Shown here: piece by piece, positions 30,673 to 55,016 of the stretch
Position numbering within the stretch: the stretch's first letter is position 1
Layout of the letters: the number at the start of each line of letters is the position of its first letter
NCBI GenBank assembly: GCA_965214865.1
Contig: CBDCCN010000002.1
Coordinates: 210,026 to 274,025 of the forward strand
DNA: 64,000 nt
Direction of reading: 5' to 3'
Origin: Vicinamibacterales bacterium
Lineage (GTDB): Bacteria > Acidobacteriota > Vicinamibacteria > Vicinamibacterales > UBA8438
Made by a program: the position numbers and the translations under genes
Notes under the pieces: generated by a model
The model's database searches: none
Told to the model about the DNA's origin: nothing
The model's input: the letters and a program-made list of their open reading frames with translations, nothing else

Positions 30673-30750
30673 TCCGTCGACAGCTCGACCGACAACCCAA
30701 TGTATCCCGTATTCATTGAGAAAACGGCGATCTGAACGGGTCCGAAAAGG

Positions 30751-30799
30751 CCGGAAAGCGGCTGGCAGAACCGGAAACGGCTGGCAGTGCGGCTGGCAG
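30751..30799. repeat. Left subterminal cluster of 3 direct CGGCTGGCAG repeats (two as CCGGAAA(G)CGGCTGGCAG)
   Basis: Copies at 30759..30768, 30778..30787 and 30790..30799, which is 87 to 127 bp inside the left junction. Confidence 0.8.
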
Positions 30800-30822
30800 T
30801 CGACCGGGTTTTGACGAGAGCT

Positions 30823-31410: not shown

Positions 31411-31451
31411 CGTCCCTGTTGGGTTGGCGACATCGTACTGCCGAGCGCGAC

Positions 31452-33797: not shown

Positions 33798-34002
33798 ATC
33801 TGAAGGTCGGCGAGGCGGGCGCCCCCAGCCCGTTGGAAATCTCGCGGGCGATCGTCGCCGATCACGCCTGCACCGGGGCCGCGAGATTCCCACACTCCCA
33901 CAGCGGTCGTCGTCGATGACTGACACGGAAACGACGTTCATCGGAAGATGTGTCATGATGTGAGCCCGCAAGCATTAACCCGTCCACGGGATCGGGGCAA
34001 CC

Positions 34003-34645: not shown

Positions 34646-34685
34646 CCGTGGAGCCACGGTCCCGGCGAAGGTCCCGGCGAAGAGG

Positions 34686-35171
34686 TCAGCCGAACAGCAC
34701 GCCGAGCACGTCCGCTTCGCGCTCGGCATCGAGCAGGCCGATCCAGGCGTGCGTTACCATCCCGTCGCCGTCGACCAGCAGCAGGGTCGGCGTTCCCTGG
34801 ACAGGCAGCGTGTCACGTTGAACGAACATGACTGAATCAGGAGTGATGCCTTCGGACGCCAAGTAGCCCTCGATGCCGGCGTCGAAAGGCGGGGCGACAA
34901 CGACGATCTCAACGTCTTGGCTGTCGCGCTCGAGCAAGCGCCGGTAGAACGGCATCGACTGCTGGCAGAACCGGCAGTCGGACCGTAGCACCATCAGCAG
35001 GGTGCGGCCATCGAGGTCGAGAACGTCGCCTGCTCGAAACTCGACAAGCTCCGACTCGGACATGCCGGCGACGCCTGATGGCCGGAATTGCGATCCCACC
35101 AAGACCAGAATGGCTACGGCGACCGCGATCGTCGCGCCGTCTGCAAGCTGGCTGAGCCGCGCGCCTGTCAC
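34686..35171 (-). CDS. Membrane-anchored thioredoxin-fold (TlpA/ResA-like) thiol:disulfide oxidoreductase
   Basis: N-terminal TM segment and a CRFC (CxxC) motif in the context LLMVLRSDCRFCQ. The GTG start overlaps the upstream stop (GTGA). Confidence 0.7.
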   Translation of the reverse strand: MTGARLSQLADGATIAVAVAILVLVGSQFRPSGVAGMSESELVEFRAGDVLDLDGRTLLMVLRSDCRFCQQSMPFYRRLLERDSQDVEIVVVAPPFDAGIEGYLASEGITPDSVMFVQRDTLPVQGTPTLLLVDGDGMVTHAWIGLLDAEREADVLGVLFG

Positions 35172-35881
35172 CGCTCTACCTCCGGCAGTTCGCGGACGGC
35201 GTAGCCGGACGGAATCCCGAACGTGTCCGCCGGCAGGGAGGCCCGTTCCGCGGATCGCAGCCGCTCGCCCGTCATGCTGCCGTCGGGCAAGTGCATCTCC
35301 CGGACAACGACCTCATCGGACTCGTCATCGATCCAGAGAACGGTCAAGGTGCCGTCCTGATGCTCCGTTGTCCACGCCCGCAAGACCATCGGGCCGTACG
35401 TCCTAAAGCCGCCCGAAGGTGACATTTCACCGCCATGATCATGCGCGTCGTCGAGACTGTGGTCGTGACCGTGTTCGGTCGTTGGCGCGGGCAGGAAGGA
35501 GACAATCGAAGGAACCGGCGCTTGCGGTTCCCAGTATGCACCCCGCGGGCCACGGATGGCGTTCTCCAGATCGTGGCTGATCGTGATCCGCTCGAACCGG
35601 GTTCTGATCTCCGTGGACTCGAAGGTCTCGCCTGATGGCGGGAACGGTCGACGTACATCCCGGCGCCACAGCGACACGTGCTTCGGCGTCAGGTACATTG
35701 TGCCCGTTCCAAGGCTGATCGTCTCCCCCTCGCCCGACTCGAATACCCGCTCGAACGTCACGACGACACCGGAGACCCCGCCGTTCTGCTGCTCGGCCGC
35801 CATGACGGCGCACGCGAGAAGCACAGCCAGCGACGTTGCGCCAACGACGATCCGTCGATACGACCTCAAGTTGTTGGTCAT
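35168..35881 (-). CDS. Hypothetical secreted protein with His-rich patch (EHGHDHSLDDAHDHGG)
   Basis: Signal peptide (VVGATSLAVLLACAVMAAEQ). It is coupled to the thioredoxin-like gene by a 4-nt overlap. Confidence 0.55.
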   Translation of the reverse strand: MTNNLRSYRRIVVGATSLAVLLACAVMAAEQQNGGVSGVVVTFERVFESGEGETISLGTGTMYLTPKHVSLWRRDVRRPFPPSGETFESTEIRTRFERITISHDLENAIRGPRGAYWEPQAPVPSIVSFLPAPTTEHGHDHSLDDAHDHGGEMSPSGGFRTYGPMVLRAWTTEHQDGTLTVLWIDDESDEVVVREMHLPDGSMTGERLRSAERASLPADTFGIPSGYAVRELPEVER

Positions 35882-35938
35882 GCCCTTATCCTCCTCGTCC
35901 CGTTCCAGAAGGCCCTCGTTCCCGAGAGTTCTCGACGA

Positions 35939-36241
35939 TTAGCTGTACAGGCAGTTCTGGTTGTGGAAATGCTCGTGCCGGCCGCACCCGTCACCGTTCG
36001 TCGTGAAAACACATCGTTCGATATGGTATTCCTTACCCCACCAGACGAAGCATTCGCCGTCGGGGCCGGACTCTTGCGCGCATCTCCGAAAGCCGTCGGG
36101 CCTGCACGTGATGCTCTCAGTGAAACACGTGCAGGAGCTACTGTAGGGGTCGATCCGGCTGTCCGCCGAAAGCATGTCGGTCGAGACCAGCAGCAGCAAT
36201 ACCGCGGAGAGCACAACGAGCCGCAGAATAGATCGCCGCAT
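35939..36241 (-). CDS. Small secreted Cys-rich protein (8 Cys in about 75 mature residues)
   Basis: Signal peptide MRRSILRLVVLSAVLLLLVS. Cysteines occur at SSSCTCF, ITCRP, RRCAQ, GECFV, ERCVF, DGCGR and QNCLY. GC is locally lower. Confidence 0.55.
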   Translation of the reverse strand: MRRSILRLVVLSAVLLLLVSTDMLSADSRIDPYSSSCTCFTESITCRPDGFRRCAQESGPDGECFVWWGKEYHIERCVFTTNGDGCGRHEHFHNQNCLYS

Positions 36242-36340
36242 CAGGAACCTCCCACGAAGTGCCGGGCCATCAACTGGCCCGACGGACGGACGTGGTACAC
36301 GATAGCCGCTCCGGAGGCTTTCGCGGAACTGGGGGTTTTC

Positions 36341-37156
36341 CTAGGCCGCTAGCGCGGCTTCATCGAGCGTCGCAATGGCCGCCCGGACCGACGCGATCTC
36401 CTCGTCACGACGCACCTGCTCTGCGACACGCGCCGCCGCGGCCTCGCAGTGCGCGTCGACGACAGCAGGTGTGGATACCCAGCCGTCGAGCACCTGTCCC
36501 GCGGCCGCGAGACGGTCGGCGTTCCGGCCCACGACGACGACTTCGACGGCGCGGCCCGCCGCCAGCAGCGCCGCCCACAACCCGGCATGCTGCCCGCCCC
36601 AGGTCCGCAGGGCGCTCTGCGTCTCCTCCTCCGGCTGGACCAACACGAACGTCGCCCGCTCGGCGTCGAGCGCCAGCGGCAGCCTGTGGACGAAAGGCCG
36701 GCGGCGGGAGCCGTCCGCGCCGGCGTACACCCGGCCCGGCCACACGTCCCGCGGCACCCCCGCGGCCGTGAACGCCGCCACCTTCTCGCCGTCGGCCGGC
36801 AGCCACGGCGCGTCGAGGTGGTCGATCACGTAGTCGAGCGCCAGCAGCCGGCGCAACGCCACGACCGGAGTCGCGTCGCGCCGAGGGCGAAGGTGCTCCA
36901 CGCCCAACGCCCGGTAGAGTTCGCGGTCCACGATCCGGCACAGCAGCCCCGGATCGTTCCGGGAATCCTCCGGCATCGCTGCCGGGCCGCATCCGGAATC
37001 GTGCGGAATCTCCGTCGAAGTTCTGCGGAACACCCTCCGGAGCAGCGCGGAGGTCGCGCCGCGCAACGTCGATGGCGCGAGCTGGTCCCCGCCGTCCTCC
37101 CGCCGAGCCACCGACCGCGCGGCCACATCCACGGGACGGTCCTCGAAATCGGTCAT
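36341..37156 (-). CDS. Hypothetical protein
   Basis: ATG at 37156 sits 7 nt after GGAGGAG. Composition is globular. No motif was recognised. Confidence 0.5.
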   Translation of the reverse strand: MTDFEDRPVDVAARSVARREDGGDQLAPSTLRGATSALLRRVFRRTSTEIPHDSGCGPAAMPEDSRNDPGLLCRIVDRELYRALGVEHLRPRRDATPVVALRRLLALDYVIDHLDAPWLPADGEKVAAFTAAGVPRDVWPGRVYAGADGSRRRPFVHRLPLALDAERATFVLVQPEEETQSALRTWGGQHAGLWAALLAAGRAVEVVVVGRNADRLAAAGQVLDGWVSTPAVVDAHCEAAAARVAEQVRRDEEIASVRAAIATLDEAALAA

Positions 37157-37399
37157 CGCCCGGCTCCTCCGAATGGCGCGCCCAACCAGACGCACACCGA
37201 GCGCCTCCGCCGACCGTGCCGACTCGACAGGCATGGAGGCAGTTTACCTGACTGTCAATGGCCGCACAACGGCCATTCTCTCGTGTGCTGCCCAGCCCCC
37301 GAGGTCGCGTCGATGGCGCGCTGTTCAGCAACGTTTATTGCCGTATGTCCGGGCATCTGGCGGTCCAGTCCGGTCCCACGGCGTGCGCTCGTGGCTGAC

Positions 37400-38964
37400 T
37401 TTGAAATATGAGCTTCTTGCAAAACCCTGCGGAGAGGCGATTTTCGGTCTGGACAAGCGCAGGCAGGATGCCGGTGGGCAGTTGCGTTCGACGAGAGGGT
37501 AACATGGCAGCAACTCGGCGTTGAGCGTGTCGCTCACCGCTTTGGTATTCGCGGGAGGTCAACTGCAGCATGCCCCGTATGCGAGATTCCTTCGCCCCCT
37601 ACTGGCAGTCGATTCAGAATGCGCTGTTTCCCGATCTGGAGCAGGAGCTGGGACCACTGACCGCCAAGCAGCAGCAGTTGGTGCAGACCTTGGAGGTCCT
37701 CCGCATCGAGCAGTGGATTCCCCCGCAGTTTGGGGCGCCGGGGCGTCCGCCGAGCGACCGCACTGCGCTGGCGCGGGCATTCGTGGCCAAGGCGGTCTAC
37801 GACATGCCGACCACGCGGATGCTGCTGGACCGCTTGGACACCGACGTGGCGCTCCGGCGTCTATGCGGCTGGGAGCGGCGGAGCCAGGCGCCGAGCGAGT
37901 CGGTCTTCTCGCGCGCCTTCGCCGAATTCGCCCGCTCGCAGTTGCCCCAACGGGTGCACGAGGCGTTGGTCCGCAAGACCCACGGCGACCAGTTGGTGGG
38001 CCATCTCTCCCGCGACTCGACGGCCATCGAGGTCCGCGAGAAGCCTGCCGTCAAGGAGAAGGCGCCGACGCCTCCCAAGCGCAAGCGGGGACGGCCGAAG
38101 AAGGGCGAAGAACGGCCGAAGCGGCGCACACGGCTCGAACGGCAGTCCACCATGACCCTGCCCGAGATGCTCGACGACCTGCCGACCGACTGCGATGTCG
38201 GCACGAAGAAGAACAGCAAGGGATACCGCGACACCTGGGTCGGCTACAAGCTGCACATCGACGTGGCCGACGGCCAGGTCCCCATCAGTTGCCTGTTGAC
38301 CTCGGCCTCGACGCATGACAGCCAAGCCGCCATTCCCCTGGCGACGATGGCGGCCGAACGGGCGACCAACTGCCATGACCTGATGGATTCGGCCTACGAT
38401 GCCGAAGCGGTCCACGAACACAGCCGCTCACTCGGCCACGTCCCGTTGATTGACATCAACCCCCGCCGCGACAAGGCGCTGGCCGAGGAGCTGAAAGCTG
38501 AAGCCCGGCGCCTGCGGTGCATCGGCTTCCAGCTTCCTGAGCAGGTCCGGTACAACGAACGCACCGCGGGTGAGCGCGTCAATGGCCGACTGAAGGACGA
38601 GTTCGGTGGCCGCCATGTACGCGTCCGTGGCGCCTCGAAGGTGATGTGCCATTGCATGTTCGGCATCCTCGCCCTCACTGCCGACCAGCTCCTGCGCCTT
38701 GTGACATAACCGACGTGTCGGCGGACCGGCCGCATCCCATCGCCATGGCCGGACCGCCATCAGCGCATCTACCCGTGTCCCTCAACGCCCGTCGAGAACA
38801 CCGTCGAAGCCGGCTGTCTCAGCCCTCTCCGCTTGCCCACACGTGCTGTAGAACGAGATCGGAGGCGACAAACCCAAGGGCGATGGGACTCCAAGCAGGA
38901 AGGACCGCCATCAGCCCATCGAGCCGAATCCCCCACGAGTTCTGCAAGTGGCTCAAATAAGAAA
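37400..38964 (+). mobile_element. Insertion sequence of about 1.57 kb (IS4/IS5-like, DDE transposase) with imperfect terminal inverted repeats
   Basis: IRL is TTTGAAATATGAGCTTCTTGCAAAAC (37400..). IRR is GTTCTGCAAGTGGCTCAAATAAGAAA (..38964). About 18 of 25 positions match. No clear target-site duplication was found. Confidence 0.7.
37570..38709 (+). CDS. DDE transposase (IS4/IS5 superfamily)
   Basis: 379 aa, with ..HLSRDSTAIEV.., ..GYKLHIDV.., ..LMDSAYDA.. and ..NERTAGERVNGRLKDEFG.., a typical DDE_Tnp_1 layout. Confidence 0.85.
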   Translation: MPRMRDSFAPYWQSIQNALFPDLEQELGPLTAKQQQLVQTLEVLRIEQWIPPQFGAPGRPPSDRTALARAFVAKAVYDMPTTRMLLDRLDTDVALRRLCGWERRSQAPSESVFSRAFAEFARSQLPQRVHEALVRKTHGDQLVGHLSRDSTAIEVREKPAVKEKAPTPPKRKRGRPKKGEERPKRRTRLERQSTMTLPEMLDDLPTDCDVGTKKNSKGYRDTWVGYKLHIDVADGQVPISCLLTSASTHDSQAAIPLATMAAERATNCHDLMDSAYDAEAVHEHSRSLGHVPLIDINPRRDKALAEELKAEARRLRCIGFQLPEQVRYNERTAGERVNGRLKDEFGGRHVRVRGASKVMCHCMFGILALTADQLLRLVT

Positions 38965-38985
38965 ATTATTATTGTTCGCGTGCAG

Positions 38986-39678
38986 ATGGACTTCATCGGC
39001 GAGCGCCTCCGCGAGACCCGCAAGCTGCGCGGTCTCACCCAGTTGCAGCTCGCGCACCGCACCGGCATCGCGCGGCACCTGATCCCGATGGTCGAGCACG
39101 GCAAGTCGGGCCTGTCGCCGGCCAACCTGTCGGCCGCCGCCCAGGCACTGCGCGTCTCGGTCGACTACCTGTTCGGGCTCACCGACGACCCGACGCCCGC
39201 CGCCCAGCTCGCCTCGCGGGTCCGGGCGCTCGAAGACGACAGCGCCCGCGCCGGGGCGCTCGACGAGGGCGACTTCGTCGGCGTCTGGGAGGTGGCCACC
39301 GCCGCGGGCGGCGGGGCCGAGGTCGACCGCGAGCGGGTCATCGGCCGCATCAAGTTCCGGCGGGCGTGGCTCACGAGCCATGGCCTCGCCGCCGGCGACT
39401 GCCGCATCATCCAGGTGCTCGGGGAGTCGATGGAGCCCACCCTGGTGGACGGCTGCTCGATCCTCGTCAACCACGCCAGCCGGCGGCGGCGCGAAGGCGG
39501 CATCTACGTGGTCCGAACCGCCGACGGCTTGATCGTCAAGCGCGCCGGCAAGGAAGCGGACGGGAGCTGGCTGCTCGTCAGCGACCACCCCGACAAGCGG
39601 GCGTGGCCGACGCTGCCCTGGCCCGACGACGCGGCCGTGCTCGGCGAGGTCCGCTGGACCGCGCGGACGTTTCTGTGA
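38986..39678 (+). CDS. CI/LexA-like repressor (XRE HTH plus S24 peptidase domain)
   Basis: HTH (LRGLTQLQLAHRTGIARHLIPMVEHG). S24 Ser/Lys dyad context (VLGESMEPTL ... GLIVKRAG). The ATG lies only about 22 bp from the IS right end. Confidence 0.85.
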   Translation: MDFIGERLRETRKLRGLTQLQLAHRTGIARHLIPMVEHGKSGLSPANLSAAAQALRVSVDYLFGLTDDPTPAAQLASRVRALEDDSARAGALDEGDFVGVWEVATAAGGGAEVDRERVIGRIKFRRAWLTSHGLAAGDCRIIQVLGESMEPTLVDGCSILVNHASRRRREGGIYVVRTADGLIVKRAGKEADGSWLLVSDHPDKRAWPTLPWPDDAAVLGEVRWTARTFL

Positions 39679-39690
39679 GGGAGAGAGTCT

Positions 39691-40881
39691 ATGGAACCGA
39701 TCGTCAGTGAGATCGAGGGCGTCCGACCCGATGCGGCGGAGTGGGCGATGGCCGTGCCGGTGGCGAAGCCGCGGCAAGCCGGGGAGCGGGGAGCATCGAA
39801 GGCCGGCGCCGGCAAGCCAGCCGCACGCCGCCGCGTGCGGGTCGCCGAGGGCATCTACCGGGACCGGCACGGACTGGCCGCCACGGTCAAGGTCAACGGC
39901 ATCCAGCGCGAGGTCCGTTTCCCGCCCGGCACGCCGCTCAGGACCATTCGGGCGAAGCGTGACGAGCTGCGGGCCAGCCTGCGGACACTCCCGGCAGGCG
40001 GCCGGCACACCCTCAGCCACGACGCCGGGCGGTACCTCGATCAGGTGGAGAGCACCCTGATCAGCTTCGGCGACCGCCGCCGCGAACTGCTGGCGTGGCT
40101 GCCGCGGTTCGGGCACCTGCGGACGACGGCGCTCCCGGCGCACCTGCCGATGCTCAACGCCCAGCTTCACGAGTGGCGCCGGACGCTCGCCGCCTCGACC
40201 TGCAACCACCGCCGCCACGCCCTGACGAACCTCGTCCGCGTGCTCTACGGCCGCCGCGCCTCGTTCGACCTGCTCGACCTCGTCCGCTTCGCCCCGCCGC
40301 CCCCGAAGCCCCGCTGGGTCGACCGCCGCCACATCGCTGCGGTTCTGGCGGAGATCCCGGCCGGATCCGTTACCGGCGTGCGGCTGGAGCTGATGCACTG
40401 GACCGGGATGCGGCCGTCGCAGATGGGCAGACTCCGCGCGGATGACTTCCGGCTCGACGAGCCGATCCCCTACGTGGCGGTTCCGCGAGGGAAGGGCGGC
40501 CGGATCGCCGCCGTCCCGCTGGTGCCGGAGGGCGTCGCCGCCGCGCGCGCCTTCCTCGACGCCGAAGCCTTCGGGCCGTGGCCCCGCAGCAGCGTCAACC
40601 GGGCGCTCGCCCGAGCAGCGCGCAAGGCCGGCCGGCCGGTGTTCACCACCTACCAGATCCGGCACTCGTTCGCAGCCGGCCTGCGCCGGGCCGGGACGGA
40701 CGTGGCGGACATCCAGGACCTCTATGGACACACCCGGCCCGAGACGACCATGATCTATGCGCCACCGGAGCTGGCGAAGCATCTGGCGGCGCTCGAACGG
40801 CTGCGCAGCGACGACGCGGAGGGCGGGCCGGAACCGGCTGGCCAGCCCGTTCTGGCTGGCACTAACGGCTGGCAGGGTTAA
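39691..40881 (+). CDS. Tyrosine recombinase/phage-type integrase
   Basis: Catalytic signature elements HWTGMRPSQM (Arg), IRHSFAAGLRRAG (HxxR) and GHTRPETTMIYA (Tyr). It starts 12 nt after the repressor stop and lies next to the right junction. Confidence 0.9.
   Translation: MEPIVSEIEGVRPDAAEWAMAVPVAKPRQAGERGASKAGAGKPAARRRVRVAEGIYRDRHGLAATVKVNGIQREVRFPPGTPLRTIRAKRDELRASLRTLPAGGRHTLSHDAGRYLDQVESTLISFGDRRRELLAWLPRFGHLRTTALPAHLPMLNAQLHEWRRTLAASTCNHRRHALTNLVRVLYGRRASFDLLDLVRFAPPPPKPRWVDRRHIAAVLAEIPAGSVTGVRLELMHWTGMRPSQMGRLRADDFRLDEPIPYVAVPRGKGGRIAAVPLVPEGVAAARAFLDAEAFGPWPRSSVNRALARAARKAGRPVFTTYQIRHSFAAGLRRAGTDVADIQDLYGHTRPETTMIYAPPELAKHLAALERLRSDDAEGGPEPAGQPVLAGTNGWQG
40828..40875. repeat. Right subterminal cluster of GGCTGGC(A) repeats (CCGGAACCGGCTGGCCAG, CTGGCTGGCAC, ACGGCTGGCAG), same orientation as the left cluster
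   Basis: It lies 69 to 116 bp inside the right junction, within the 3' end of the integrase ORF. Confidence 0.7.
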
Positions 40882-40943
40882 CGCGTGACGCACATAATGG
40901 ATTTGAATAAGCTGGTTACGGCGTTCGTCGTTAGCGTGATACC

Positions 40944-40953
40944 GGACTGGGAG
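40944..40953. repeat. Right copy of the 10-bp direct repeat GGACTGGGAG (candidate att core)
   Basis: Identical to 30663..30672. Confidence 0.7.
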
Positions 40954-41436
40954 GCGGGGGCCTACAGCCCGCGCACCAACATGATGTACATGCCGCTGCG
41001 CAACGCCTGCGCGCGGATGGCGCCGCTCGACGATGGGGGCCGGTCGCTCTACAGCCTCAGCATGCGCAACGAGCTGGCGCCCGGCACCGACCGGCTCGGC
41101 GCGGTGTGGGCGATCTCCGCGGAGACCGGCGTGACGGCGTGGACCTGGGAGCAGCGCGCCGCCACGATGTCGCTGGCGGTGACGGCCGGGGGCCTCGTCT
41201 TCGTCGGCGACGTCAACGGCCGGTTCCGCGCCCTCGACGACGAGACCGGCGCGGTGCTCTGGGAGGTCAACCTCGGGTCGCCGGTCAGCGGCTTCCCCGT
41301 GACCTATGCGGTCGACGGCCGGCAGTACGTCGTGGCGGGCACCGGCACGGGCGGCAACGCCTCGCGCTGGAGCGCGATGACCCCGGAGCTGCGGCCGAGC
41401 AGCGGCAACAACCTCTTCGTCTTCGCGTTGCCTTAG
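40954..41436 (+). pseudogene. PQQ-dependent dehydrogenase, 3' portion (about 160 codons)
   Basis: ..AGAYSPRTNMMYMPL...GGLVFVGDVNGRFRALDDETGAVLWEVNLGSPVSGFPVTYAVDGRQYVVAGTG.. are the typical last propeller blades. The track ORF start at 40885 is element sequence. Confidence 0.85.
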
Positions 41437-43814: not shown

Positions 43815-43945
43815 GGCGGAATCATACCGCGCCCGCGCGAAGCTTCCTGCGGACCTGCGGCGCCCGCAGGGCACGGCCGGCAGCGTGTCCGGGAGTCTGC
43901 GCCGCTTCTGCGGCGCAGACTCCCGGCCCGCCGCCCGATACGAAT

Positions 43946-44503
43946 TCACGCCGCGCCGACCGCCAGGACGCGCCGGACACCCGCCCCCGCCTCGGCGGCG
44001 CGCGCGACGATCTGCTCGTCGCTCAACGTGCTGAGCGGGTGCGTGACGACCACCGGTTCGAGAAGTTCGGCCCCGAGCGCCGTCCGCTGCACGTCGGCCT
44101 CGTGCAGGAACGCGTCGGTCACGATGACCGCCGTCGGGACGCCCCGCTCCTCCAGGCCGACCGCGTCGTGCAGACTGCACGACGTGCACGACCCTCAATC
44201 GCCTATCGCGGTAATCACCGCGTCGTTCTCGGCCGCGATCCGGTCGAGCAGGTCCGCCTCGGCCGGGCGCGAGAAGCTCGGCTTGGTGTAGAGGTTCACG
44301 CCGGCCAGCGTCAGATCCGCCTCCAGCCCGCTGACGACGTGGCGGAGCAGCTTCGAGGCGTTCCACTTGGCGTTGTCCAGCACGCCGATCCGCACCCCCT
44401 CCAACGTCGTCAGGCGGGCCGCCGGCTCGCGCGGCTCTGCAGTGACCGTCCCGCGGGGGTCGTAGACGATCCGTCCGTCCGGCAGTCGTCGTTCGCCGGT
44501 CAT
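43946..44503 (-). CDS. UGSC-motif selenoprotein (in-frame TGA = Sec at 44195..44197)
   Basis: The ORF track stops at the TGA (..AVITAIGD*). The same frame continues GSCTSCSLHDAVGLEERGVPTAVIV...THPLS.. to a TGA at 43946. Both halves are conserved in the paralog at 50762..51295, and a hairpin follows the TGA. Confidence 0.75.
44164..44184 (-). promoter_or_regulatory. Candidate bacterial SECIS hairpin (CGUCGUGC-AGUCU-GCACGACG)
   Basis: A perfect 8-bp stem starts 11 nt 3' of the UGA, with a 5-nt loop containing GU. Confidence 0.55.
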
Positions 44504-44533
44504 CGGCCGCTGCTCCGGATCACGTGGCCGGCC

Positions 44534-45646
44534 TCAAAGCGTGCACGTCCCGTCTTCGCACTCGCCGGTCGCCGGCGGCCGTCCGTCGATCGCCCGCAGC
44601 ACCGGCGACGTCATGTGGCCCCACCCGGGCAGGAACGCCGAGAACCGGCCGGCCGCGCCGCCCGCCACGAACAGATGGATGTCGTCGGCTGACGGCACGA
44701 TGGGGATGCGTGCTCCCGGCTCGCGCTTGTACCAGCGCGGGAGGTTCCGGTTGTAGATCTTCCCGTAGCGCCCTCCGAAGCTGATGTCGTCGAACGTGTT
44801 GGTCGTCGCCCACCAGAGGTAGCGCCGCACATCCTGCCGGGTCCACTGCCTCGCGGCGATCGTCGCGGCGTGCTCCGGGCCGATCACGACGGCGCACGAG
44901 CCGCTGCTGACGGCGTTGTTGTGCGCGATGGTGCTCATCGCCGAGGCGATGCTGTCGAGGATCCCTTCCGGGTCGTCGGCCACGTGGTTGGTGACGCTGT
45001 GCGGGCCCTCGGCGGCGATGCAGAAGACGGTGCTGTCCTCGGGGCGGTAGCCGTGCTCGACGTGGTACGGCGCCCACGGACCCGCCTCTTCGTTTTCGGC
45101 GATACAGAAGGTGTACTTGCCGGGGTGGCCCAGCGTGCTCTTGTCGAGCTCGCCGGGCCAACCGCCGCCGACGTTGAGCAGCACGAGACGGATGGCGCGG
45201 CCGATGGTGGCGTTGGCCCGGAAGCCCGAGCCGAAGACGTTCGGGCCGGCGTTCAGCCCGATCTCGTGCCGGACGGGCCCGTTCACCACGACCAATGGCG
45301 CCGCCATGTGGGTGGTCGCCTGCACGCCGTGGAGGTTGAAGGGACCGCTCGTCAGCGCCAGGAGCGCGGCCCGCACGACCGGCCCGTATTCCGGCCGGCA
45401 GCCGGCGAGCACCAGGTTGATCGCCAGCACCTCGCGCGTCAGGTTGCCCCAGCGCGGCGGGATGCGGGCTTCGAGACGGTCGGGCTCGCCCCCGAGCGCG
45501 TCGACCATCGCCGCCACCGTCGCCGGCGTGGGCGGGACCACGGGCAGGCCGTCCGTCCAGCCCTGCTCGAAGTAGTACTCGATCAGGTCCGCCGTTTCGC
45601 CGGCGTGCGGCGCATCCCGGGCGATCGGCATCGCCGGCGTCGTCAT
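44534..45646 (-). CDS. Conserved hypothetical protein, partner of the UGSC selenoprotein (GLPVVPPT / AGCRPEY / FNLHGVQATT / RANATIGRA motifs)
   Basis: 370 aa, about 50 to 55% identical by eye to residues about 190..420 of the 51643..53309 product. Its stop lies 30 nt before the UGSC start. The C-terminus carries GECEDGTC. Confidence 0.7.
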   Translation of the reverse strand: MTTPAMPIARDAPHAGETADLIEYYFEQGWTDGLPVVPPTPATVAAMVDALGGEPDRLEARIPPRWGNLTREVLAINLVLAGCRPEYGPVVRAALLALTSGPFNLHGVQATTHMAAPLVVVNGPVRHEIGLNAGPNVFGSGFRANATIGRAIRLVLLNVGGGWPGELDKSTLGHPGKYTFCIAENEEAGPWAPYHVEHGYRPEDSTVFCIAAEGPHSVTNHVADDPEGILDSIASAMSTIAHNNAVSSGSCAVVIGPEHAATIAARQWTRQDVRRYLWWATTNTFDDISFGGRYGKIYNRNLPRWYKREPGARIPIVPSADDIHLFVAGGAAGRFSAFLPGWGHMTSPVLRAIDGRPPATGECEDGTCTL

Positions 45647-45736: not shown

Positions 45737-47842
45737 CTACCGTACGTCCTTGAATCCCCGGCCCGCCTCCGCGAGCCGCTTCAGCAGCGGGGCCGGCTTC
45801 AGCCACTCGCCGTGCTCGTCGTGGAGGCGGCTCATCGTGTCGTAGATCGTCCGAAGGCCGACCAGGTCGGCCCAGAACATCGGCCCGCCGCGGTAGCGCG
45901 GAAAGCCGTAGCCGTGCATCCAGATGACGTCGATGTCGCCGGCGCGCAGGGCGAGGCCCTCGTCGAGGATCTTCGCGCCCTCGTTGACGAGCGGATACAG
46001 GCACCGCGGGACGATCTCGTCGTCGCCGATCGCACGCCGCTCGATCCCGAGCTCCGTCGAGACGCCGGCGATGAGCGCGTGGATGGCCGGATCCGGAATC
46101 GGGACGCGGCTGCCCTTCTCGTAGCGGTACCAGCCGGCGCCGGTCTTCTGCCCGTAGCGGCCCTGCTCGCAGATGCGGTCGGCGATCGGCGAGTAGCGCA
46201 GGTGGGCCGGCCGGGTCGGCGCCTGCGCCTTCCGCACCCGCCAGCTCACGTCGAGCCCGGCGAGATCCGCCATCCGGTAGGGCCCCATCGGCAGGCCGAA
46301 GTCGTAGACGACCCGATCGATCTGCTCCGGCAGCGCCCCTTCCTCCAGCAGGAAGTCGGCCTGCCGGCGGTAGGCGTAGAGCATCCGGTTGCCGACGAAG
46401 CCGTCGCAGACGCCGACCAGCACGCCCACCTTGCCCAGCTTCTTCGAAAGCTTCATGACGGTGGCGATGGTCTGCGCCGACGTGCGGGCGCCGCGCACGT
46501 TCTCCATCAGCTTCATGACGTTCGCCGGACTGAAGAAGTGGGTGCCGATGACCTGCTCCGGCCGCGACGTGGCGGCGGCGATGGCGTCGACGTCGAGGGT
46601 CGACGTGTTGGTGGCCAGGATCGCTCCCGGCTTGCACACGCGGTCGAGCCGGGCGAACACCTCCTTCTTGAGCGGCAGCTCCTCGAATACCGCCTCGATC
46701 ACGACATCGGCCGCGCCGAGGTCCGCGTCGTCGAGGGTCGGCGTGATGCGCGCCAGCCGGGCGTCCATCTCCGCCTGCGACAGCCGTCCCTTCGAGACGG
46801 TCGCCGCGTAGTTCCGGCGGACGACGGCCATGCCGCGGTCGAGCGCCTCCTGCGACGATTCGAGAACCGTGACCGGCAGGCCGGCGTTGGCGACGCTCAT
46901 CGCGATGCCGCCGCCCATGGTGCCGCAGCCGACGACTCCCGCCGCCGCTATCGGCCGCACCGGGGTATCCTTCGGCACGTCCGGGATCTTCGCCACCTCG
47001 CGCTCGGCGAAGAAGGCATGCCGCTGCGCCGCCGACTGGTCCGATTCGCGGAGCCGGTCGAACACCGCCCGCTCGTTCTTCAGCGCCTCGGCGTACGGCA
47101 TCGTCAGCGCCTTCTCCACGCAGTCGACGCAGGCGTACGGCGCATCGAAGCCGCGGGCGCGCTTCGCCATCTTCCGGCGGAAGTTCTCGAAGATCTCCGG
47201 CCGGCCGCGCGCCGCGTCCAGGTGCTCCTCCAGCCTCGACGCCCGCCGCAAGGGCGCGCCGTCGGCCGCGAACTGCCGGGCCCGCGCGATCGCCGTCTTC
47301 ACCAGGTCGCCTTCGACGCACTCGTCCACGAAGCCGAACTCGACCGCCTTGTCCACCGGGTGAAGCTTCCCGCCGACGATCACGTCGAGCGCCGCCTCGA
47401 CGCCGATGAGCCGCGGCATGCGTTGCGTGCCGCCCGCGCCGGGCAGGATGCCGAGCGTCACTTCCGGCAGGCCGAGCCGCGTGCCGGGGGCGGCGAGCCG
47501 TAGGTGGCACGCCAGGGCCACCTCCATCCCGCCGCCTGCCGCCACTCCGTGGATGGCGGCGACCACCGGCTTCGGCGACGCCTCGATCGCGTCCAGAACC
47601 GCGGGCAGGGACGCCGCGCCCGGCGGCGGCGGCGCGCTGAACTCCCGGATGTCGGCCCCGCCGCAGAACATCCGGTCCGCGCCGGCGAGGACGATCGCCC
47701 TGACGGCGTCGTCGGCCAGCGCCTCGGCCACGCGCTCGCCGAGGGCGGCGCGCATGGCCCAGCTCAGACCGTTGACCGGCGGGTTGTCCAGACGCAGCAG
47801 CGCAACGTCGTCGTGGCGTTCGAACGTGACGGAACCGGGCAT
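45737..47842 (-). CDS. Bifunctional enoyl-CoA hydratase / 3-hydroxyacyl-CoA dehydrogenase (FadJ/FadB-like)
   Basis: N-terminal crotonase fold (LDNPPVNGL.., FCGGADIREF). NAD-binding GVVGCGTMGGGIA. 3HCDH C-terminal domains. RBS AGGAAGG before ATG 47842. Confidence 0.9.
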   Translation of the reverse strand: MPGSVTFERHDDVALLRLDNPPVNGLSWAMRAALGERVAEALADDAVRAIVLAGADRMFCGGADIREFSAPPPPGAASLPAVLDAIEASPKPVVAAIHGVAAGGGMEVALACHLRLAAPGTRLGLPEVTLGILPGAGGTQRMPRLIGVEAALDVIVGGKLHPVDKAVEFGFVDECVEGDLVKTAIARARQFAADGAPLRRASRLEEHLDAARGRPEIFENFRRKMAKRARGFDAPYACVDCVEKALTMPYAEALKNERAVFDRLRESDQSAAQRHAFFAEREVAKIPDVPKDTPVRPIAAAGVVGCGTMGGGIAMSVANAGLPVTVLESSQEALDRGMAVVRRNYAATVSKGRLSQAEMDARLARITPTLDDADLGAADVVIEAVFEELPLKKEVFARLDRVCKPGAILATNTSTLDVDAIAAATSRPEQVIGTHFFSPANVMKLMENVRGARTSAQTIATVMKLSKKLGKVGVLVGVCDGFVGNRMLYAYRRQADFLLEEGALPEQIDRVVYDFGLPMGPYRMADLAGLDVSWRVRKAQAPTRPAHLRYSPIADRICEQGRYGQKTGAGWYRYEKGSRVPIPDPAIHALIAGVSTELGIERRAIGDDEIVPRCLYPLVNEGAKILDEGLALRAGDIDVIWMHGYGFPRYRGGPMFWADLVGLRTIYDTMSRLHDEHGEWLKPAPLLKRLAEAGRGFKDVR

Positions 47843-48143
47843 GCGCGACCTTCCTGTGTTTCCGGCGCCGGGCGCGCGATCCGGGGTTTCAGCGCGGCGC
47901 TCGGCCGTCGGGGAATATCCGGGATGCAGCGAACGCCCCACCGCGCACGATCGCCGCGATGGACGGAGCGCCGGCCCCGACCGCAACGATTATAGTTGCC
48001 GCGCGAGTCGGGTCTCCGGGCGTCCCGGGCGTCACTGCGCGCGGGACGACGAAGGCCCCTGGCGGGCATCCCCGCCGCCGACGCCGCCGAATCCGCTCCA
48101 GCACGATCGGCGCCCGTCGGCGGCGCCGGCTTATACTGGACCG

Positions 48144-48935
48144 ATGCCTCCCCAGGCCGCGGAACACCTCGATCCGGAATCCCTGGTGGCGCGGATCATC
48201 GCCGAGCTCCAGGCCAATCCGGCGGCGCAGCGGATGCTGCTGCGCGCCATGCTGACGAACGAGTTCCTGGGGATGCCGGCGCGTCTGGACGCCATCGAGC
48301 CCGACGTCGGCGAGATCAAGCAGCGCGTCACCACACTGGAGCGCGACGTCGCCGAGATCAAGCAGCGCGTCACCACCTTGGAGCACGATGTCGGCGAGAT
48401 CAAGCAGCGCGTCACCACACTGGAGCGCGACGTCGCCGAGATCAAGCAGCGCGTCACCACCTTGGAGCACGACGTCGGCGAGATCAAGATCGACGTGGCG
48501 GCCCTCAGGGGATACAGCCTGGAAGTCAGGATGCACAAGTGGATCCGCCCGTTCCTCAGCCAGAAGCTGGGGTTACGCCGGGCACACGTCGTGCAGGGGG
48601 CCGTTACGGACCCGGACCGCGATCTGCAGGAGGCGGTGTACGAAGCGGTCGATACGGATCGCATCACGATCGGACAGGAAGCCCGCGTCTTCGCGACCGA
48701 CCTCATCCTGCGGGCGCGCGCGAAGGACCGGGCCAACGTGTGGGTCGCAGTCGAGGCGTCCAACGCTGTCGACGGACGCGACGTCGAACGGGCGCGCGAG
48801 TCGGCAGACGCACTTCAGGCGATCTTCGGGGAGCAATCGACGGCCGTCGTAACGGGGCATTCCATCCCGGCCGAACCGCGGCGACTCGCAGCCGCGAGCG
48901 GCGTCGAGGTGTTCCTCGTCGCCCCCAACCGCTGA
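48144..48935 (+). CDS. Coiled-coil repeat protein with C-terminal PD-(D/E)xK-like (DUF3782-like) domain
   Basis: It has 4.4 tandem 14-aa units, DV(G/A)EIKQRVTTLE(R/H). The C-terminal segment ..ATDLILRARAKDRANVWVAVEASNAVDGRDVERA.. resembles nuclease-fold D...E.S/K cores. Confidence 0.6.
   Translation: MPPQAAEHLDPESLVARIIAELQANPAAQRMLLRAMLTNEFLGMPARLDAIEPDVGEIKQRVTTLERDVAEIKQRVTTLEHDVGEIKQRVTTLERDVAEIKQRVTTLEHDVGEIKIDVAALRGYSLEVRMHKWIRPFLSQKLGLRRAHVVQGAVTDPDRDLQEAVYEAVDTDRITIGQEARVFATDLILRARAKDRANVWVAVEASNAVDGRDVERARESADALQAIFGEQSTAVVTGHSIPAEPRRLAAASGVEVFLVAPNR
48303..48488 (+). repeat. Coding tandem repeat: 42-bp unit x4.4, organised as a perfect 84-bp duplication
   Basis: Units start at 48303, 48345, 48387, 48429 and 48471. 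Units 1 and 2 are repeated as units 3 and 4; a C/T difference at 48305 vs 48389 is the only one I noted. Confidence 0.9.
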
Positions 48936-49043: not shown

Positions 49044-50603
49044 CTACAACCGTCGCCGCGTGACCGGTCGGTCGCCTGACAGCATGGCGTAGAACCCGTC
49101 GCGGTCCCCGGACGTGTCGGTCGTGAACCGCGAAATCACCGGGATGACGACCAGCGGCACGAAGGTCGTGACGTAGGACGGGTCGATGCCTTCCCCGTCC
49201 ACCGTGAGGCAGTAGACGAGCAGCCGGTACAGGGCCGAGGCGCCTTCCGGTGCGCTGATCCCGGCGGCGAGGGCCAGCTTGAGGAGCGCGAACCAGATCA
49301 GCCCCGCCCCGTAGCCGGTCGCCATCCCCCACCAGGCGCCCCGCTCGGTCGTCCGCGGCCAGTAGATGACGTAGCCGACGGCGATGGCCGGCGGCACCAC
49401 CATCGCGAAGCCGAACAGCAGGAGGTCGAGAATCGAGATGCTGGTCCGGGTGGCGACCACCCAGGCGGCCAGGGCGGCGACGACGGCGTAGACGACGGTC
49501 GTCGCCCGGTAGGCCCGGAGCCTTCGCGCCGAGTCGTAGCGGCGGGTGAACGGCAGCCAGTCGCGGACGAACATCGTCGCGCTCGACAGCAGGATCGGGC
49601 CGCCGGACGAGATGACCGCGGCGAGCACCGCGGCCAGGGCCACGCCGCCGACCACCGGGCTGATCTCCGAGGCGAGCGTCGTCAGGTTGCGGTAGCCGCC
49701 GAGTCCGGCGTCGAGCCCGTAGCGCGCCGTCGTCAGGATGGCGATCAGGCCGGCCAGCATCGGCATCAGGGCCGCGATGACTCCCGCAGCGACGAACGCG
49801 GGCGCGATGTGCCGCTCGTTCCGCGCCGCCGCCGCGTAGTTCGTGTAGACCGAGGCGGCCGGCGTGTGGATCGCGGCCGAGAAGATCATCGCGAAAACGG
49901 GGAGCCACCCCGCGCCGGTGAATCCCCACCACGCCGCGGTGTCGCGCGACGCCGCCGCCAGGTGCCCGCCGACGGCCGCCGTCACCCCGCTCCAGCCCCC
50001 GAGCTGCTCGATGCCCAACAGCCCGACCCCCAGCAGCCCGACGAGCACCACGACGCAATGGATGAGATTCGTGACCGCCGTCCCCCACAGGCCCCCGAGC
50101 GAAACGTAGGTGGCGAAGATGGCGGCCGCCACCAGCACCCCGGAGAACATCGACAGCGGCGTCAGGGTGCTGACGATGACGCCGATGACGTACGCCTCGA
50201 TCAGGTTGACGATGACGTACTCGGTCTGCACGCAGAGGCTGGTCAGCCACTGGCAGCGGCGGTTCTCCCAGCGGAGCGTGAAGATCTCTCCGACGGTCTG
50301 CAGCCGCAGCCGGCGGTAGTGGACCGCGAAGAACAGGCCGACGAGCGACAGCGCCAGGAACGTGGCGACGCCGTACCACCAGAGGTTCCAGACCCCGCCG
50401 CTGATGACGTCGCCGGCCACGCCGTAGGTGCCGGCGCCGCCGATGCGCGTCCCCGCGACGCCCACCGCCACCAGCACCGTCGACATCCCGCCGCCGGCCG
50501 CCGCCCAGCCGGTCGACGTGGTCGTCCGCCGCGCCATCAGGCTGCCGATGGCGGTGGCGGTGATCAGGTAGAGGACGATGACGCCGACCGCGATCGTGTC
50601 CAT
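49044..50603 (-). CDS. Sodium:solute symporter (SSS) family transporter
   Basis: 519 aa and highly hydrophobic, with roughly 13 TM-like segments. The N-terminus MDTIAVGVIVLYLITATAIGSLMARR is typical of SSS proteins. Confidence 0.8.
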   Translation of the reverse strand: MDTIAVGVIVLYLITATAIGSLMARRTTTSTGWAAAGGGMSTVLVAVGVAGTRIGGAGTYGVAGDVISGGVWNLWWYGVATFLALSLVGLFFAVHYRRLRLQTVGEIFTLRWENRRCQWLTSLCVQTEYVIVNLIEAYVIGVIVSTLTPLSMFSGVLVAAAIFATYVSLGGLWGTAVTNLIHCVVVLVGLLGVGLLGIEQLGGWSGVTAAVGGHLAAASRDTAAWWGFTGAGWLPVFAMIFSAAIHTPAASVYTNYAAAARNERHIAPAFVAAGVIAALMPMLAGLIAILTTARYGLDAGLGGYRNLTTLASEISPVVGGVALAAVLAAVISSGGPILLSSATMFVRDWLPFTRRYDSARRLRAYRATTVVYAVVAALAAWVVATRTSISILDLLLFGFAMVVPPAIAVGYVIYWPRTTERGAWWGMATGYGAGLIWFALLKLALAAGISAPEGASALYRLLVYCLTVDGEGIDPSYVTTFVPLVVIPVISRFTTDTSGDRDGFYAMLSGDRPVTRRRL

Positions 50604-50761: not shown

Positions 50762-51295
50762 CTAGTGCGTGATCGCCTCGACGATGGCCTCGTACGCCGC
50801 GCGCGCCTTGGCGCGCATCTCGTCGTCCGTGGCGTCCTGGATGGGGTGCGGCACGTAGACGGCCTTGTCCGCCACGTCCGGCATGCCGAGCGCCACGGAC
50901 TGCCGCTCCGCCGCCTCGACGAACTCGGTGGACGCCACCATCACCGTGGGAATGCCCCGCGCCTCGTAGTCGACCAGGTCGTGCACACTGCACGACGTGC
51001 AGGACCCTCAATCGGCGAGGGCCTGAATCACCGCCTTGCACCGCTCGGCCACCTCCTCGCGGAGGTCGGCCGGGGCCGGCCGCGTGAAGGTCGGCTTGCG
51101 CAACCGGACGACGTCGAGCCCCGGCTGCCGGGAACGCAGCAGCGTCTCGAGCTCGTCGCAGAAGACGTCGCCGCGCGGTTTCGAGATGTCGACGATCCCG
51201 ACCGTGCCGGACAGCGCGCCGCCCCGCGCCGCGAGGCGACGGCCGATCGGCTCGCGTTCGTCGGTCGGATCGAGTATGACGGAAGAGTCGTGCAT
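50762..51295 (-). CDS. UGSC-motif selenoprotein, paralog 2 (in-frame TGA = Sec at 51008..51010)
   Basis: ATG at 51295 follows GGGAGG. ..AVIQALAD-TGA-GSCTSCSVHDLVDYEARGIPTVMV..VPHPI.. continues in frame to a TAG at 50762. A hairpin follows the TGA. Confidence 0.75.
50978..50996 (-). promoter_or_regulatory. Candidate bacterial SECIS hairpin (GUCGUGC-AGUGU-GCACGAC)
   Basis: A 7-bp stem starts 12 nt 3' of the UGA. Its position and loop match the first locus. Confidence 0.5.
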
Positions 51296-51642: not shown

Positions 51643-53309
51643 CTACTCTTGCGTCGGCGCCGGAACCGGGGCATCGATCACCTGCGTAACCGCCTTCGAT
51701 CCCAGCCCGCCGCTCGCCCACCCGCCGACCGCGGCGGAGAACTTCCCCGCCGTGCCGCCGGCCACCATGATCAGGACGTTCTCCGGCTGCGAGAACTTCG
51801 GGAACGGCCGGTCCAGCGCCGCCGCCGTCGGGCGGCCGTCGGGACCGAGCCAGTCCCGCGGCAACGCGCGGACGCCGGTCCCCTTCTGGCATTCCTCGTC
51901 GGGGAGCACGTCGCGCAACGGGCGGGCCGTCACCTCCTGAATCCGGGCGCGGAGGTCGTCCTTCGTAAAGCCGTCGCGCTCGAAGGTGCGCGCGTGCTCG
52001 GGCGAGACCACCAGCAGCGCCTGATCCATGCCGTGCAGCTTGACGTGGCGATGGCTTCGAGCGAGAACCCCATGCTGGCGGCCAGCGACCGGGAGCTGCG
52101 CGAGAGCTGGTCGCGGATGGCGCGCGGCGCCTCGGCGGCGAAGACGGTGACGGTGCTCTGGCCGCGGTCGAAGCCGCGTTCGACGTGGAGCGGCTCCCAG
52201 CAGCTCGCCTCTTCGTTCTCGCCGATGCAGGCGCCGAACTTGCCGGGCTGGCCGAGCGTCGCCATGTCGACCTCGCCGGGACGGCCGCCGCCGACGTTGC
52301 GGACCACGAGCTGCAGGGCGCGGCCGATGGTGGCGTTGGCGCGCGTCCCCTGGCCGAAGACGTTGCGCCCGCAGTTGAGCCCGATCGCGTGGCGGACGGG
52401 TCCGTTGACGACGAGGAGCGGACCGACGAAGTAGGTGGTGGCCAGCACGCCGTGCAGGTTGAAGGCGTCGGTGCAGGCCGCTTCGACCGCGGCGATGACC
52501 ACCGGCAGGTACTCGGGCCTGCACCCCGCCATGACGGCGTTGACGGCGATCTTCTCCACCGTGGCCGGGGCCAGGTTGGGCGGCACGTCGGCCACCACGT
52601 CGGCGGGCCGCCGCGCGGTGCCGGCCAGCATCCGCGCCACCCGTTCCTCGGTCGGCGGCACCACCGGCAGGCCGTCGGTCAGGCCCTGCCGGTCCAGAAA
52701 CTCGAACGGGTCGAGGTCGGCCGGCATGCGGACCCGCCGTGCGGCCAGCCTCGACGAGTCGCGCCGGGCCGCCAGCCGCCGGGCGACGTCCGGATCGTGG
52801 ACCTTCGATCCGCAGCCGGGCCGCACGTCGGGCAGCGGCTCGCCCTCGCGCTCGACCACCGGCGCCGGGCTGCCGCACCGTTCGGCGGCGAGGCCGACCA
52901 GCGCCAGCAGGTCCGCCCGGCCGAAGCCCTCGAAGCTCGCCAGCACGTTGGCGTCCTCGGCGGCCAGCACCAGGGCGGGCACGGCGTCGAAGCCGTACTC
53001 CTCGGAGACGAGCAGCTCGGCGTCGAGGGCACGGGGGAACGTGAGTCCGTGCCGGTCTGCGAACGCGGCGGTCAGCGCCGCGTCGTCCTGCGACACGCCC
53101 AGGACGCGCAGGCCGGACCCGGACAGCGCCCGGTGCACCCGCTCGACGAGCGGCGCGGTCAGGTCGCACGTGGCGCAGTCGTGCTTGAAGAAGAAAATCA
53201 GCGTCGCGGGCGCGGCAGGACCATCGGGCCCGAACCCGCAGGGGGCGCCCGCGGCGTCGCGCAGCGCGAACGGGGCGGCCTTCGTGCCGGGAGTGGGAAG
53301 CGTCGACAT
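51643..53309 (-). pseudogene. Redoxin (thioredoxin-fold, CATC) domain fused to the UGSC-partner domain; frame disrupted near 52050
   Basis: The N-terminus LIFFFKHDCATCDL..LGVSQDD is AhpC/TSA/TlpA-like. It is followed by GLTDGLPVVPPT..AGCRPEY..FNLHGVLATT..RANATIGRA. After ..SLAASMGFSLEAIA the homologous C-terminus (HVKLHGMDQALLVVSPEHARTF...MVAGGTAGKFSAAVGGW..) continues in the 51643..53520 frame. Confidence 0.7.
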
Positions 53310-54822: not shown

Positions 54823-55016
54823 CCGACCCGCCCGCGCGACGTCCCCGCGGGTCAGTAGAACGGTGCAGACTCCCGGTGAAGGTTGGTTTGGGCGGCCGGG
54901 ACGAACGCGGGAAGCGGAGACGGGAATCGATCGGAGTCTCGGCGCCGCCCGGCCATCCGAGGGTCTCCGGTGGTCCGAGCCGGATATGACGAGGTTGGCG
55001 TTCCGCAATGCCGGCG

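Follow-up and report, generated by a model that had tools for sequence, protein, structure and literature searches.

A predicted UGSC-family selenoprotein gene with an in-frame UGA and a SECIS-like hairpin in a member of the Vicinamibacterales

The DNA considered here (the window) is a stretch of 64,000 nucleotides (nt) from a Vicinamibacterales bacterium (contig CBDCCN010000002.1, positions 210,026 to 274,025), that is, the 64 kb in view of a metagenome-assembled genome (MAG) assigned to the Acidobacteriota. On its minus strand lies a gene, locus 1, that is crossed by an in-frame TGA and is a candidate for a selenoprotein gene of the UGSC family. The open reading frame (ORF) starts with ATG at 44503, with a GGAG ten nt 5′ of it, runs for 102 codons to ..AVITAIGD and then meets TGA 44197..44195. 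Past this codon, exactly 82 further sense codons (GSCTSCSLHDAVGLEERGVPTAVIVTDAF...THPLSTLSDEQ...) follow in frame until TGA 43948..43946. With U, selenocysteine (Sec), inserted at the internal TGA, the peptide across it reads AIGD-U-GSCTSCSLHDAVGLEER. An earlier reading of this DNA from its letters alone (the sequence-only reading) had described an ORF ending ..AVITAIGD at TGA 44195..44197 and 82 codons beyond it, all of which are present on the minus strand. A hairpin resembling a selenocysteine insertion sequence (SECIS) follows the TGA. The features of locus 1 are:

43946..44503, minus strand: predicted UGSC-family selenoprotein gene, locus 1; 185 amino acids (aa) including Sec103, final stop TGA at 43948..43946 (from the translation and the NF041046 and PF24696 scores)
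44195..44197, minus strand: in-frame TGA, probably read as selenocysteine, U103 of D-U-G-S-C-T-S-C; it aligns with the invariant Cys of 11 homologues
44164..44184, minus strand: core of the SECIS-like hairpin of locus 1; 8-bp stem CGUCGUGC/GCACGACG, loop AGUCU, predicted extended structure 44154..44194

The G+C content at third codon positions is 0.88 upstream and 0.94 downstream of the internal TGA, in a window with 71% G+C, and both halves of locus 1 therefore have a coding-type composition. TGA is the ordinary stop in 17 of the 23 long ORFs of the window, which argues against a global reassignment of this codon in the genome. The region 43900..44560 is identical, TGA included, in contigs from four independent public runs, and an identical gene occurs in three other public assemblies. 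There it is annotated as two genes of 102 aa and 58 aa, just as the sequence-only reading had anticipated when it stated that automated callers would split or truncate it. In all public assemblies examined, both this gene and its paralogue (locus 2, described below) are split or truncated, and the protein collection holds dozens of UGSC fragments of 101-126 aa. Taking the TGA as Sec would restore a 185-aa protein and would thus correct the annotation of the split gene and its fragments.

When Cys is written at the TGA, the read-through protein of locus 1 scores 146.8 bits against NF041046 (cut-off 125; profile positions 2-145 of 147) and 186.2 bits against the Pfam model PF24696, "UGSC family" (cut-off 25; positions 2-170 of 172). 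The family name given in the sequence-only reading, 'UGSC family (seleno)protein', is therefore the right one, the NCBIfam score being above its curated cut-off. Judged by these profiles, locus 1 is a new member of the known UGSC selenoprotein family. The near relatives in the protein search (68-100% identical) all stop at 101-126 aa, i.e., at the same stop, and the remoter ones reach 180-200 aa (46-56% identity in the aligned part). In eleven full-length homologues (42-51% identical), the columns in which locus 1 has D-TGA-G-S-C read D-C-G-S-C. Alignment with Cys homologues had been proposed as a check on the original interpretation; Cys stands at the U column in 11/11, and there are 24 further invariant columns, nine of them after the TGA. 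On this alignment, the TGA of locus 1 and the DCGSC homologues are a classic Cys/TGA pair.

Relatives were collected in a scan at one genome per species, which gave 80 loci; three assemblies of this organism bring the set to 83. The closest loci, about 50 of the 80, belong to Vicinamibacterales/Vicinamibacteraceae MAGs (Acidobacteriota), and the remaining ones to Entotheonella, Alpha- and Betaproteobacteria and Ca. Cybelea. This places the organism in the acidobacterial order Vicinamibacterales, even if its G+C content could point to an actinomycete. The motif codon is TGA in every one of the 121 motif matches at the 83 loci and TGC or TGT in none, and the frame stays open for 79-99 codons past the TGA at all 119 sites measured. 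The ratio of nonsynonymous to synonymous substitution rates (dN/dS) was calculated over codons 12-66 after the TGA, which excludes the hairpin, against the Vicinamibacterales loci (dS about 0.6). The downstream median is 0.23 for paralogue 1 (52 comparisons) and 0.14 for paralogue 2 (38 comparisons). The first two residues after the TGA, Gly+1 and Ser+2, are each encoded by four synonymous codons, with zero amino-acid changes. Because the frame is open, dN/dS is low and the Gly and Ser codons vary only synonymously, the sequence past the TGA is translated and under selection as protein. Homologues that terminate at this position with nothing conserved downstream, named in the sequence-only reading as evidence that would speak against it, are not what is found: purifying selection acts downstream and full-length Cys homologues exist. 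The mark of a selenoprotein gene, an in-frame UGA with constrained coding sequence on both sides, is present (121/121 TGA; dN/dS 0.14-0.23).

In the transcript, the 5′ arm of the hairpin, CGUCGUGC, corresponds to 44184..44177, the loop to 44176..44172 and the 3′ arm, GCACGACG, to 44171..44164. A spacer of 10 nt separates the UGA from the first base of the stem, which thus starts at the 11th nt. The perfect 8-bp stem, the AGUCU loop and the start 11 nt past the UGA are as the sequence-only reading had described them. That reading also called this spacing the classical one for bacteria; the start at the 11th nt stands, and the 11-nt rule is said to come from the work of Liu et al. on E. coli fdhF in 1998. 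The published consensus instead counts 16-37 nt from the UGA to the apical loop, and it further asks for an upper stem of 4-16 bp that carries an apical loop of 3-9 nt, a G at loop position 1 or 2, mostly with G or U after it, and an energy <= -7.5 kcal/mol (PMC13188914). When these four criteria are applied, the distance in locus 1 is 18 nt (10 of spacer and 8 of stem), within the range. The loop has 5 nt (3 nt if an A-U pair closes it) on a stem of 8-9 bp. The loops read A-G-U-C-U in locus 1, where A and U are able to pair, and A-G-U-G-U in locus 2, so that G occupies the second position in both. The energies are -13.3 kcal/mol (core) and -23.3 kcal/mol (extended) for locus 1 and -10.9 kcal/mol for locus 2, all below the limit. 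Perfect 8-bp hairpins with loops of 3-8 nt occur 30 times in the 64 kb, which gives an expectation of about 0.4% for one that starts within a given stretch of 9 nt.

Conservation of the hairpin extends to the nucleotide level. Base pairs form in 95.6% of the stem cells among 91 distinct sequences; in six of these, pair 18-36 is A-U instead of G-C, and pair 21-33 is A-U in two and G-U in 21, without any unpaired cell. In the stem, Ser+5 is encoded by TCG in 98% of sequences, with a codon entropy of 0.12 bit, and Thr+4 by ACG in 89% (0.61 bit), compared with 1.2-1.4 bit for Gly, Ser, Ala, Pro and Leu residues that are just as invariant but lie beyond the stem. The loop codon in 103 distinct sequences is AGT (75), TGT (27) or GTT (1), and never AGC or TGC. 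Since AGT or TGT is used in 102/103 and AGT represents just 3.3% of the Ser codons in the genes of the window, the G-U of the loop is conserved as RNA. The control consisted of seven loci of the Cys form, with TGC or TGT at the motif codon, fetched by exact protein look-up. Their peptide differs after the motif (CGSC[TC]S[SCA]C[VI][NR]D) and merely 2-6 of the 8 pairs are present at the equivalent place; the hairpin is absent from the Cys forms and therefore goes with the TGA. A covariance model made from the hairpin alignment matches the window at the two UGSC sites (79 and 72.3 bits), and everything else scores below 22 bits.

The Sec machinery was searched for with tblastn, using E. coli SelA, SelB and SelD, and with ARAGORN in the window and all loci, together with a Pfam survey of the main ORFs of the window. 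Proteobacterial loci are the only ones in which it was found: selA and selB are no more than about 8 kb away from the UGSC gene in 14-15 of them, and in 13 there is a tRNA-Sec; the orthologues near these genes have essentially the same stem, with a UGUAU loop. Sec genes beside the proteobacterial UGSC genes are strong circumstantial support for TGA as Sec in the UGSC family. The loci with Sec genes within a few kb of the UGSC gene and its upstream partner gene (see below) come from Burkholderiales and other proteobacterial MAGs (L058, L059, L066, L067, L069, L071-L073, L076-L078, L080, L081, L083); L066 has two tRNA-Sec genes, and L059 has selD nearby as well. The four public metagenome runs that hold the organism (X1-X4) contain at least five distinct tRNA-Sec-like contigs, some of them at high depth. 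One shared core of 98 nt reaches the very high depth of 73-565x, so that the community is rich in selenocysteine users.

By analogy with E. coli, the hairpin, which starts 11 nt past the UGA and presents the G-U of its apical loop 18 nt downstream, would act as a bacterial SECIS element. It would bind the SelB-GTP-Sec-tRNA(Sec) complex and in this way deliver Sec-tRNA to the ribosome paused at the UGA, and the product would carry U-G-S-C-T-S-C (UxxCxxC). Like the SECIS element of E. coli fdhF, the hairpin of locus 1 lies within the ORF as a stem-loop close behind the UGA, its small apical loop presents G-U, and its distance from the UGA fits the consensus. In contrast, the two sequences are unrelated, the upper stem of locus 1 is without an evident bulged U, and SelB binding at locus 1 is a prediction. 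The known mechanism of Sec decoding is left unchanged by this locus. For locus 1, the data show the TGA, a downstream frame that is open and constrained, the Cys/TGA pair, the family, the SECIS-type hairpin with its conserved codons and the pairing with the partner gene; we infer the actual insertion of Sec, the binding of SelB, a complex with the partner protein and the chemistry.

The most probable interpretation (about 0.9) is that 44503..43946 on the minus strand is one gene, predicted to encode a 185-residue UGSC selenoprotein, whose UGA at 44197..44195 is decoded as selenocysteine and not as a stop. Family scores, the Cys/TGA pair, the downstream constraint and the conservation of the hairpin all support what the sequence-only reading had proposed, an in-frame TGA read as selenocysteine with a SECIS-like hairpin. 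Several observations weigh against it. The fold energy of the 61-nt stretch is ordinary for its composition (z = -0.93), no comparison with shuffled sequences being significant (z = -0.93 and -1.08), and the hairpin is convincing by position and conservation, not by energy. The stem is largely fixed by the peptide T-S-C..H-D too, and the covariation concerns two pairs in related, non-independent sequences; the synonymous sites are therefore more telling. Rfam gives no match at gathering thresholds in the whole window, and around the hairpin there is just noise (E up to 10). Homologues of selA, selB, selC or selD and tRNA genes of any kind are absent from the 64-kb window, and no Sec machinery is found in the 10-kb flanks of 53 Vicinamibacterales loci. 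None of the tRNA-Sec contigs of the four runs clearly matches the depth profile of the organism (about 17/58/38/4.5). Finally, selenium incorporation into UGSC proteins is so far only predicted in the cited literature (PMC13188914).

Three other explanations of the TGA can be set beside selenocysteine. The codon may be a genuine stop, in which case the gene is truncated or split, with a 102-aa product accompanied or not by a 58-aa product from GTG 44122, or is a decaying pseudogene. Gene callers yield exactly the 102-aa and 58-aa pieces, dozens of proteins in the database stop near 102 aa, TGA is a normal stop in this genome, and the Sec machinery is unseen in the window and in the Vicinamibacterales flanks. 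However, the TGA is kept at 121/121 motif sites over several phyla, with an open downstream frame in 119/119 and a downstream dN/dS of 0.14-0.23. From the TGA to the next possible start there are 24 codons, among them those of the invariant GSCTSC, where Gly+1 and Ser+2 vary synonymously only, and the Cys-form homologues are single polypeptides, all of which makes a genuine stop very improbable. It is also very unlikely that the UGA is read through with a standard amino acid (Trp, Cys or Gly, by a near-cognate or suppressor tRNA), for example in a lineage that has lost the Sec machinery. Without SelB, a lineage would gain nothing from retaining a SECIS-type hairpin with frozen codons and a G-U loop, and essentially the same stem (loop UGUAU) is found in proteobacterial orthologues adjoining selA, selB and tRNA-Sec. 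Furthermore, TGA to TGC is a single step, yet it is seen at 0/121 sites, and several tRNA-Sec genes occur at high depth in the same metagenomes. These points outweigh those in favor of such read-through, namely that full-length translation alone explains the conserved downstream frame and that Sec genes are unseen in the 64 kb of this genome. A sequencing or assembly error, the true codon being TGC or TGT, has a negligible probability: four independent runs and three other assemblies are identical and the orthologues all have TGA, even if the consensus of the window is wrong by at least one base, the nt deleted at about 52046 in the second partner gene.

Locus 1 belongs to a family with a longer record. 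The "UGSC-containing protein" of Zhang and Gladyshev has been listed since 2007 as a predicted selenoprotein of unknown function (PMC1976440), was treated again in 2008 (PMC2398784), ranks with the most abundant families of predicted selenoproteins in aquatic metagenomes (PMC2398784), and is still uncharacterised in a 2026 review (PMC13188914). Like locus 1, the family (NF041046, PF24696) combines the U-G-S-C motif, coexisting Sec and Cys forms and a hairpin after the UGA, and there is no essential difference between the two. The host, a soil-type member of the Vicinamibacterales (Acidobacteriota), and the two paralogues that each have their own partner gene are unmentioned in the cited UGSC literature (PMC1976440, PMC2398784, PMC13188914), and a literature search returned no paper on selenocysteine in Vicinamibacterales. 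The present data indicate that Vicinamibacterales, here solely uncultured MAGs, use selenocysteine and have two UGSC copies per genome.

The second paralogue was found by a motif scan and has the same motif, its own hairpin and a different downstream neighbor:

50762..51295, minus strand: predicted UGSC-family selenoprotein gene, locus 2; TGA 51010..51008 within the same D-U-G-S-C-T-S-C, 36% identical to locus 1
50978..50996, minus strand: SECIS-like hairpin of locus 2; 7-bp stem GUCGUGC/GCACGAC, loop AGUGU (fold -10.9 kcal/mol; covariance model 72.3 bits)
49044..50603, minus strand: sodium:solute symporter family gene (Pfam SSF domain), downstream of locus 2

Locus 2 also scores above the family cut-offs (NF041046, 154.7 bits; PF24696, 151.9 bits). 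The SSF gene is downstream of the paralogue-2 UGSC gene in 20/38 Vicinamibacterales loci. Between the two UGSC clusters, at 47364..48932 on the plus strand, there is an ORF with tandem coiled-coil-type repeats (EIKQRVTTLE[RH]DV[AG]); its FlaC_arch match is sub-threshold and the gene is shorter in public assemblies.

Each UGSC gene of the window is preceded by a member of the same unnamed protein family, the partner, and the cluster of locus 1 includes genes related to hydroxy-acid and acyl-coenzyme A (acyl-CoA) metabolism:

44534..45646, minus strand: partner gene 1, 370 aa, 30 nt upstream of UGSC locus 1; no Pfam or NCBIfam family
51643..53309, minus strand: partner gene 2, same unnamed family with an N-terminal AhpC/redoxin domain; 56% identical to partner 1 over 202 aa
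42546..43814, minus strand: LarA-like gene (lactate-racemase family; Lar_N and LarA_C domains), downstream of UGSC locus 1
45737..47842, start approximate, minus strand: FadB-like gene (enoyl-CoA hydratase fused to 3-hydroxyacyl-CoA dehydrogenase; ECH_1, 3HCDH_N and 3HCDH), upstream of partner 1

None of the Pfam and NCBIfam models matches the partner family, which is nevertheless large: partner 1 has at least 7999 homologues at E<=0.001, and the matches listed share 74-94% identity with it, with Acidobacteria, Nitrospinota and Entotheonella MAGs represented among them. The gene immediately upstream of UGSC codes for the partner in 47/52 Vicinamibacterales loci, in 24/27 proteobacterial loci and in 7/7 Cys-form loci, where the partner is 64-72% identical. 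The stop of the partner and the start of the UGSC gene are in frame here, and a partner-UGSC fusion by read-through was considered and rejected, the arrangement being unconserved (Amycolatopsis differs). In the GOS paper, UGSC is fused to a domain named 'Unknown_1', a candidate for the same partner. The LarA-like gene is found downstream of the UGSC gene in 47/52 Vicinamibacterales loci, and the FadB-like gene has 701 aa in public assemblies. In Amycolatopsis (L084, 4860..7575), the pair of partner and Cys-form UGSC genes is followed by genes for a thioredoxin reductase (TrxR)-like flavoprotein, an acyl-CoA dehydrogenase and a family III CoA-transferase. A CoA-transferase gene neighbors the UGSC gene in 11/27 proteobacterial loci, in 10 of them on the same strand. 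The pairing of UGSC with an unnamed, very conserved 370-aa protein, together with the occasional fusion or adjacency to thioredoxin-type proteins, provides leads to UGSC function.

Partner gene 2 is frameshifted in the window near 52046, where one base is missing from a CCC run in comparison with orthologues L004, L006 and L009. The missing base is present at full depth in contigs of four independent public runs, and for this reason the break is most likely a consensus error of the window assembly in an otherwise intact gene rather than the mark of a pseudogene.

The gap of 131 nt between the UGSC stop and the LarA-like start contains an inverted repeat (43889..43926) whose arms pair perfectly over 17 bp around a loop of 4 nt (CCGGGAGTCTGCGCCGC / GCGGCGCAGACTCCCGG), with no T-run after it. 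It is unconserved in the first 25 related Vicinamibacterales loci examined. Copies of the repeat arm matching at 15/17 positions occur at 54860..54876 and 59057..59073, and the whole may be a repeated palindrome of the repetitive extragenic palindromic (REP) type.

Sequence searches of the PDB return no relatives of the UGSC profile or of the partner. The structure was considered on the AlphaFold model of a Cys homologue, P0038 (predicted local distance difference test score, pLDDT, of 90), in place of the window protein. The model shows a five-strand alpha/beta domain in which the Cys is located directly after a beta-strand, just before helix 98-113. The PDB structures that match it best are flavodoxins, TIR domains and lumazine synthase, all with a template-modelling (TM) score <0.5, and no thioredoxin is among the top 50 listed. 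This weak likeness to flavodoxin-like alpha/beta domains seems to differ from the thioredoxin-like fold that was suggested for UGSC proteins in 2008 (PMC2398784). In the model, the placement of U or C in a flavodoxin-like domain would suit a redox-active selenol or thiol centre. The AlphaFold model of the partner is poor (pLDDT 58) and its Foldseek matches have TM <=0.3; it was not used for conclusions.

The selenoprotein B subunits of Stickland-type reductases (PrdB, GrdB, GrdF, GrdH) have UxxCxxC around Sec, as in the U-G-S-C-T-S-C of UGSC, and in both cases the gene adjoins that of a larger partner subunit. When 13 UGSC proteins are compared with selenoprotein B models, 10 match PrdB (best E 5e-4), four GrdB (0.0066) and three GrdF (0.0021); these matches are weak and span the U/C stretch. 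They amount to 11-17 bits, and locus 1 reaches 11.6 bits against the TIGR01917 cut-off of 602.2, far below it. The matches to PrdB, GrdB and GrdF suggest distant relatedness, not membership. No similarity of the partner to PrdA or GrdE is detectable, the window is devoid of grd or prd genes, grdA, grdC and grdD are not found nearby, and, in contrast to the Stickland-type systems, the UGSC hosts are not Stickland-fermenting anaerobes.

Gene order and motif suggest that the UGSC protein most likely works with the upstream 370-aa partner as a redox or selenol-carrying subunit, amid genes of acyl-CoA and hydroxy-acid metabolism. A more specific proposal, tentative and rather doubtful, is that the two proteins form a two-subunit selenoenzyme of aerobic soil and water bacteria. 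UGSC would be a free-standing distant relative of the Sec part of PrdB/GrdB and the partner a new catalytic or substrate-binding subunit, with a thioredoxin-type reductant and a substrate of the acyl-CoA or hydroxy-acid type. Reducing power might then arrive via the redoxin domain of partner 2 or the TrxR-like flavoprotein beside the Amycolatopsis pair. If true, the UGSC-partner reductase would be a system undescribed so far.

Elsewhere in the window, same-frame ORFs parted by a TGA and rich in third-position G+C, at 21816..26255 on the minus strand, were considered as a further selenoprotein and rejected, as they are an ordinary, well-known gene pair (a DUF1592/DUF1588/DUF1587/DUF1585/DUF1595 gene and a DUF1552 gene). 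On the plus strand, a gene for a pyrroloquinoline quinone (PQQ)-dependent dehydrogenase is apparently split over 29200..41433, with its N-terminal part at 29200..30732 (profile 1-337 of 595) and its C-terminal part at 40882..41433 (profile 540-595). Between the halves are a ResIII helicase fragment (32982..33794), transposase genes (34006..34536 and 37525..38706), a gene for a repressor-like helix-turn-helix/S24 protein (38710..39675) and a phage-type integrase gene (39679..40878). The arrangement suggests that a mobile element of about 10 kb has entered the dehydrogenase gene. A nitrile hydratase cluster occupies 57064..61207 on the minus strand, with alpha at 58264..59112, a short beta-like accessory ORF at 57862..58260 and beta at 57067..57858; a full-length PQQ dehydrogenase gene (59078..61207) adjoins it.

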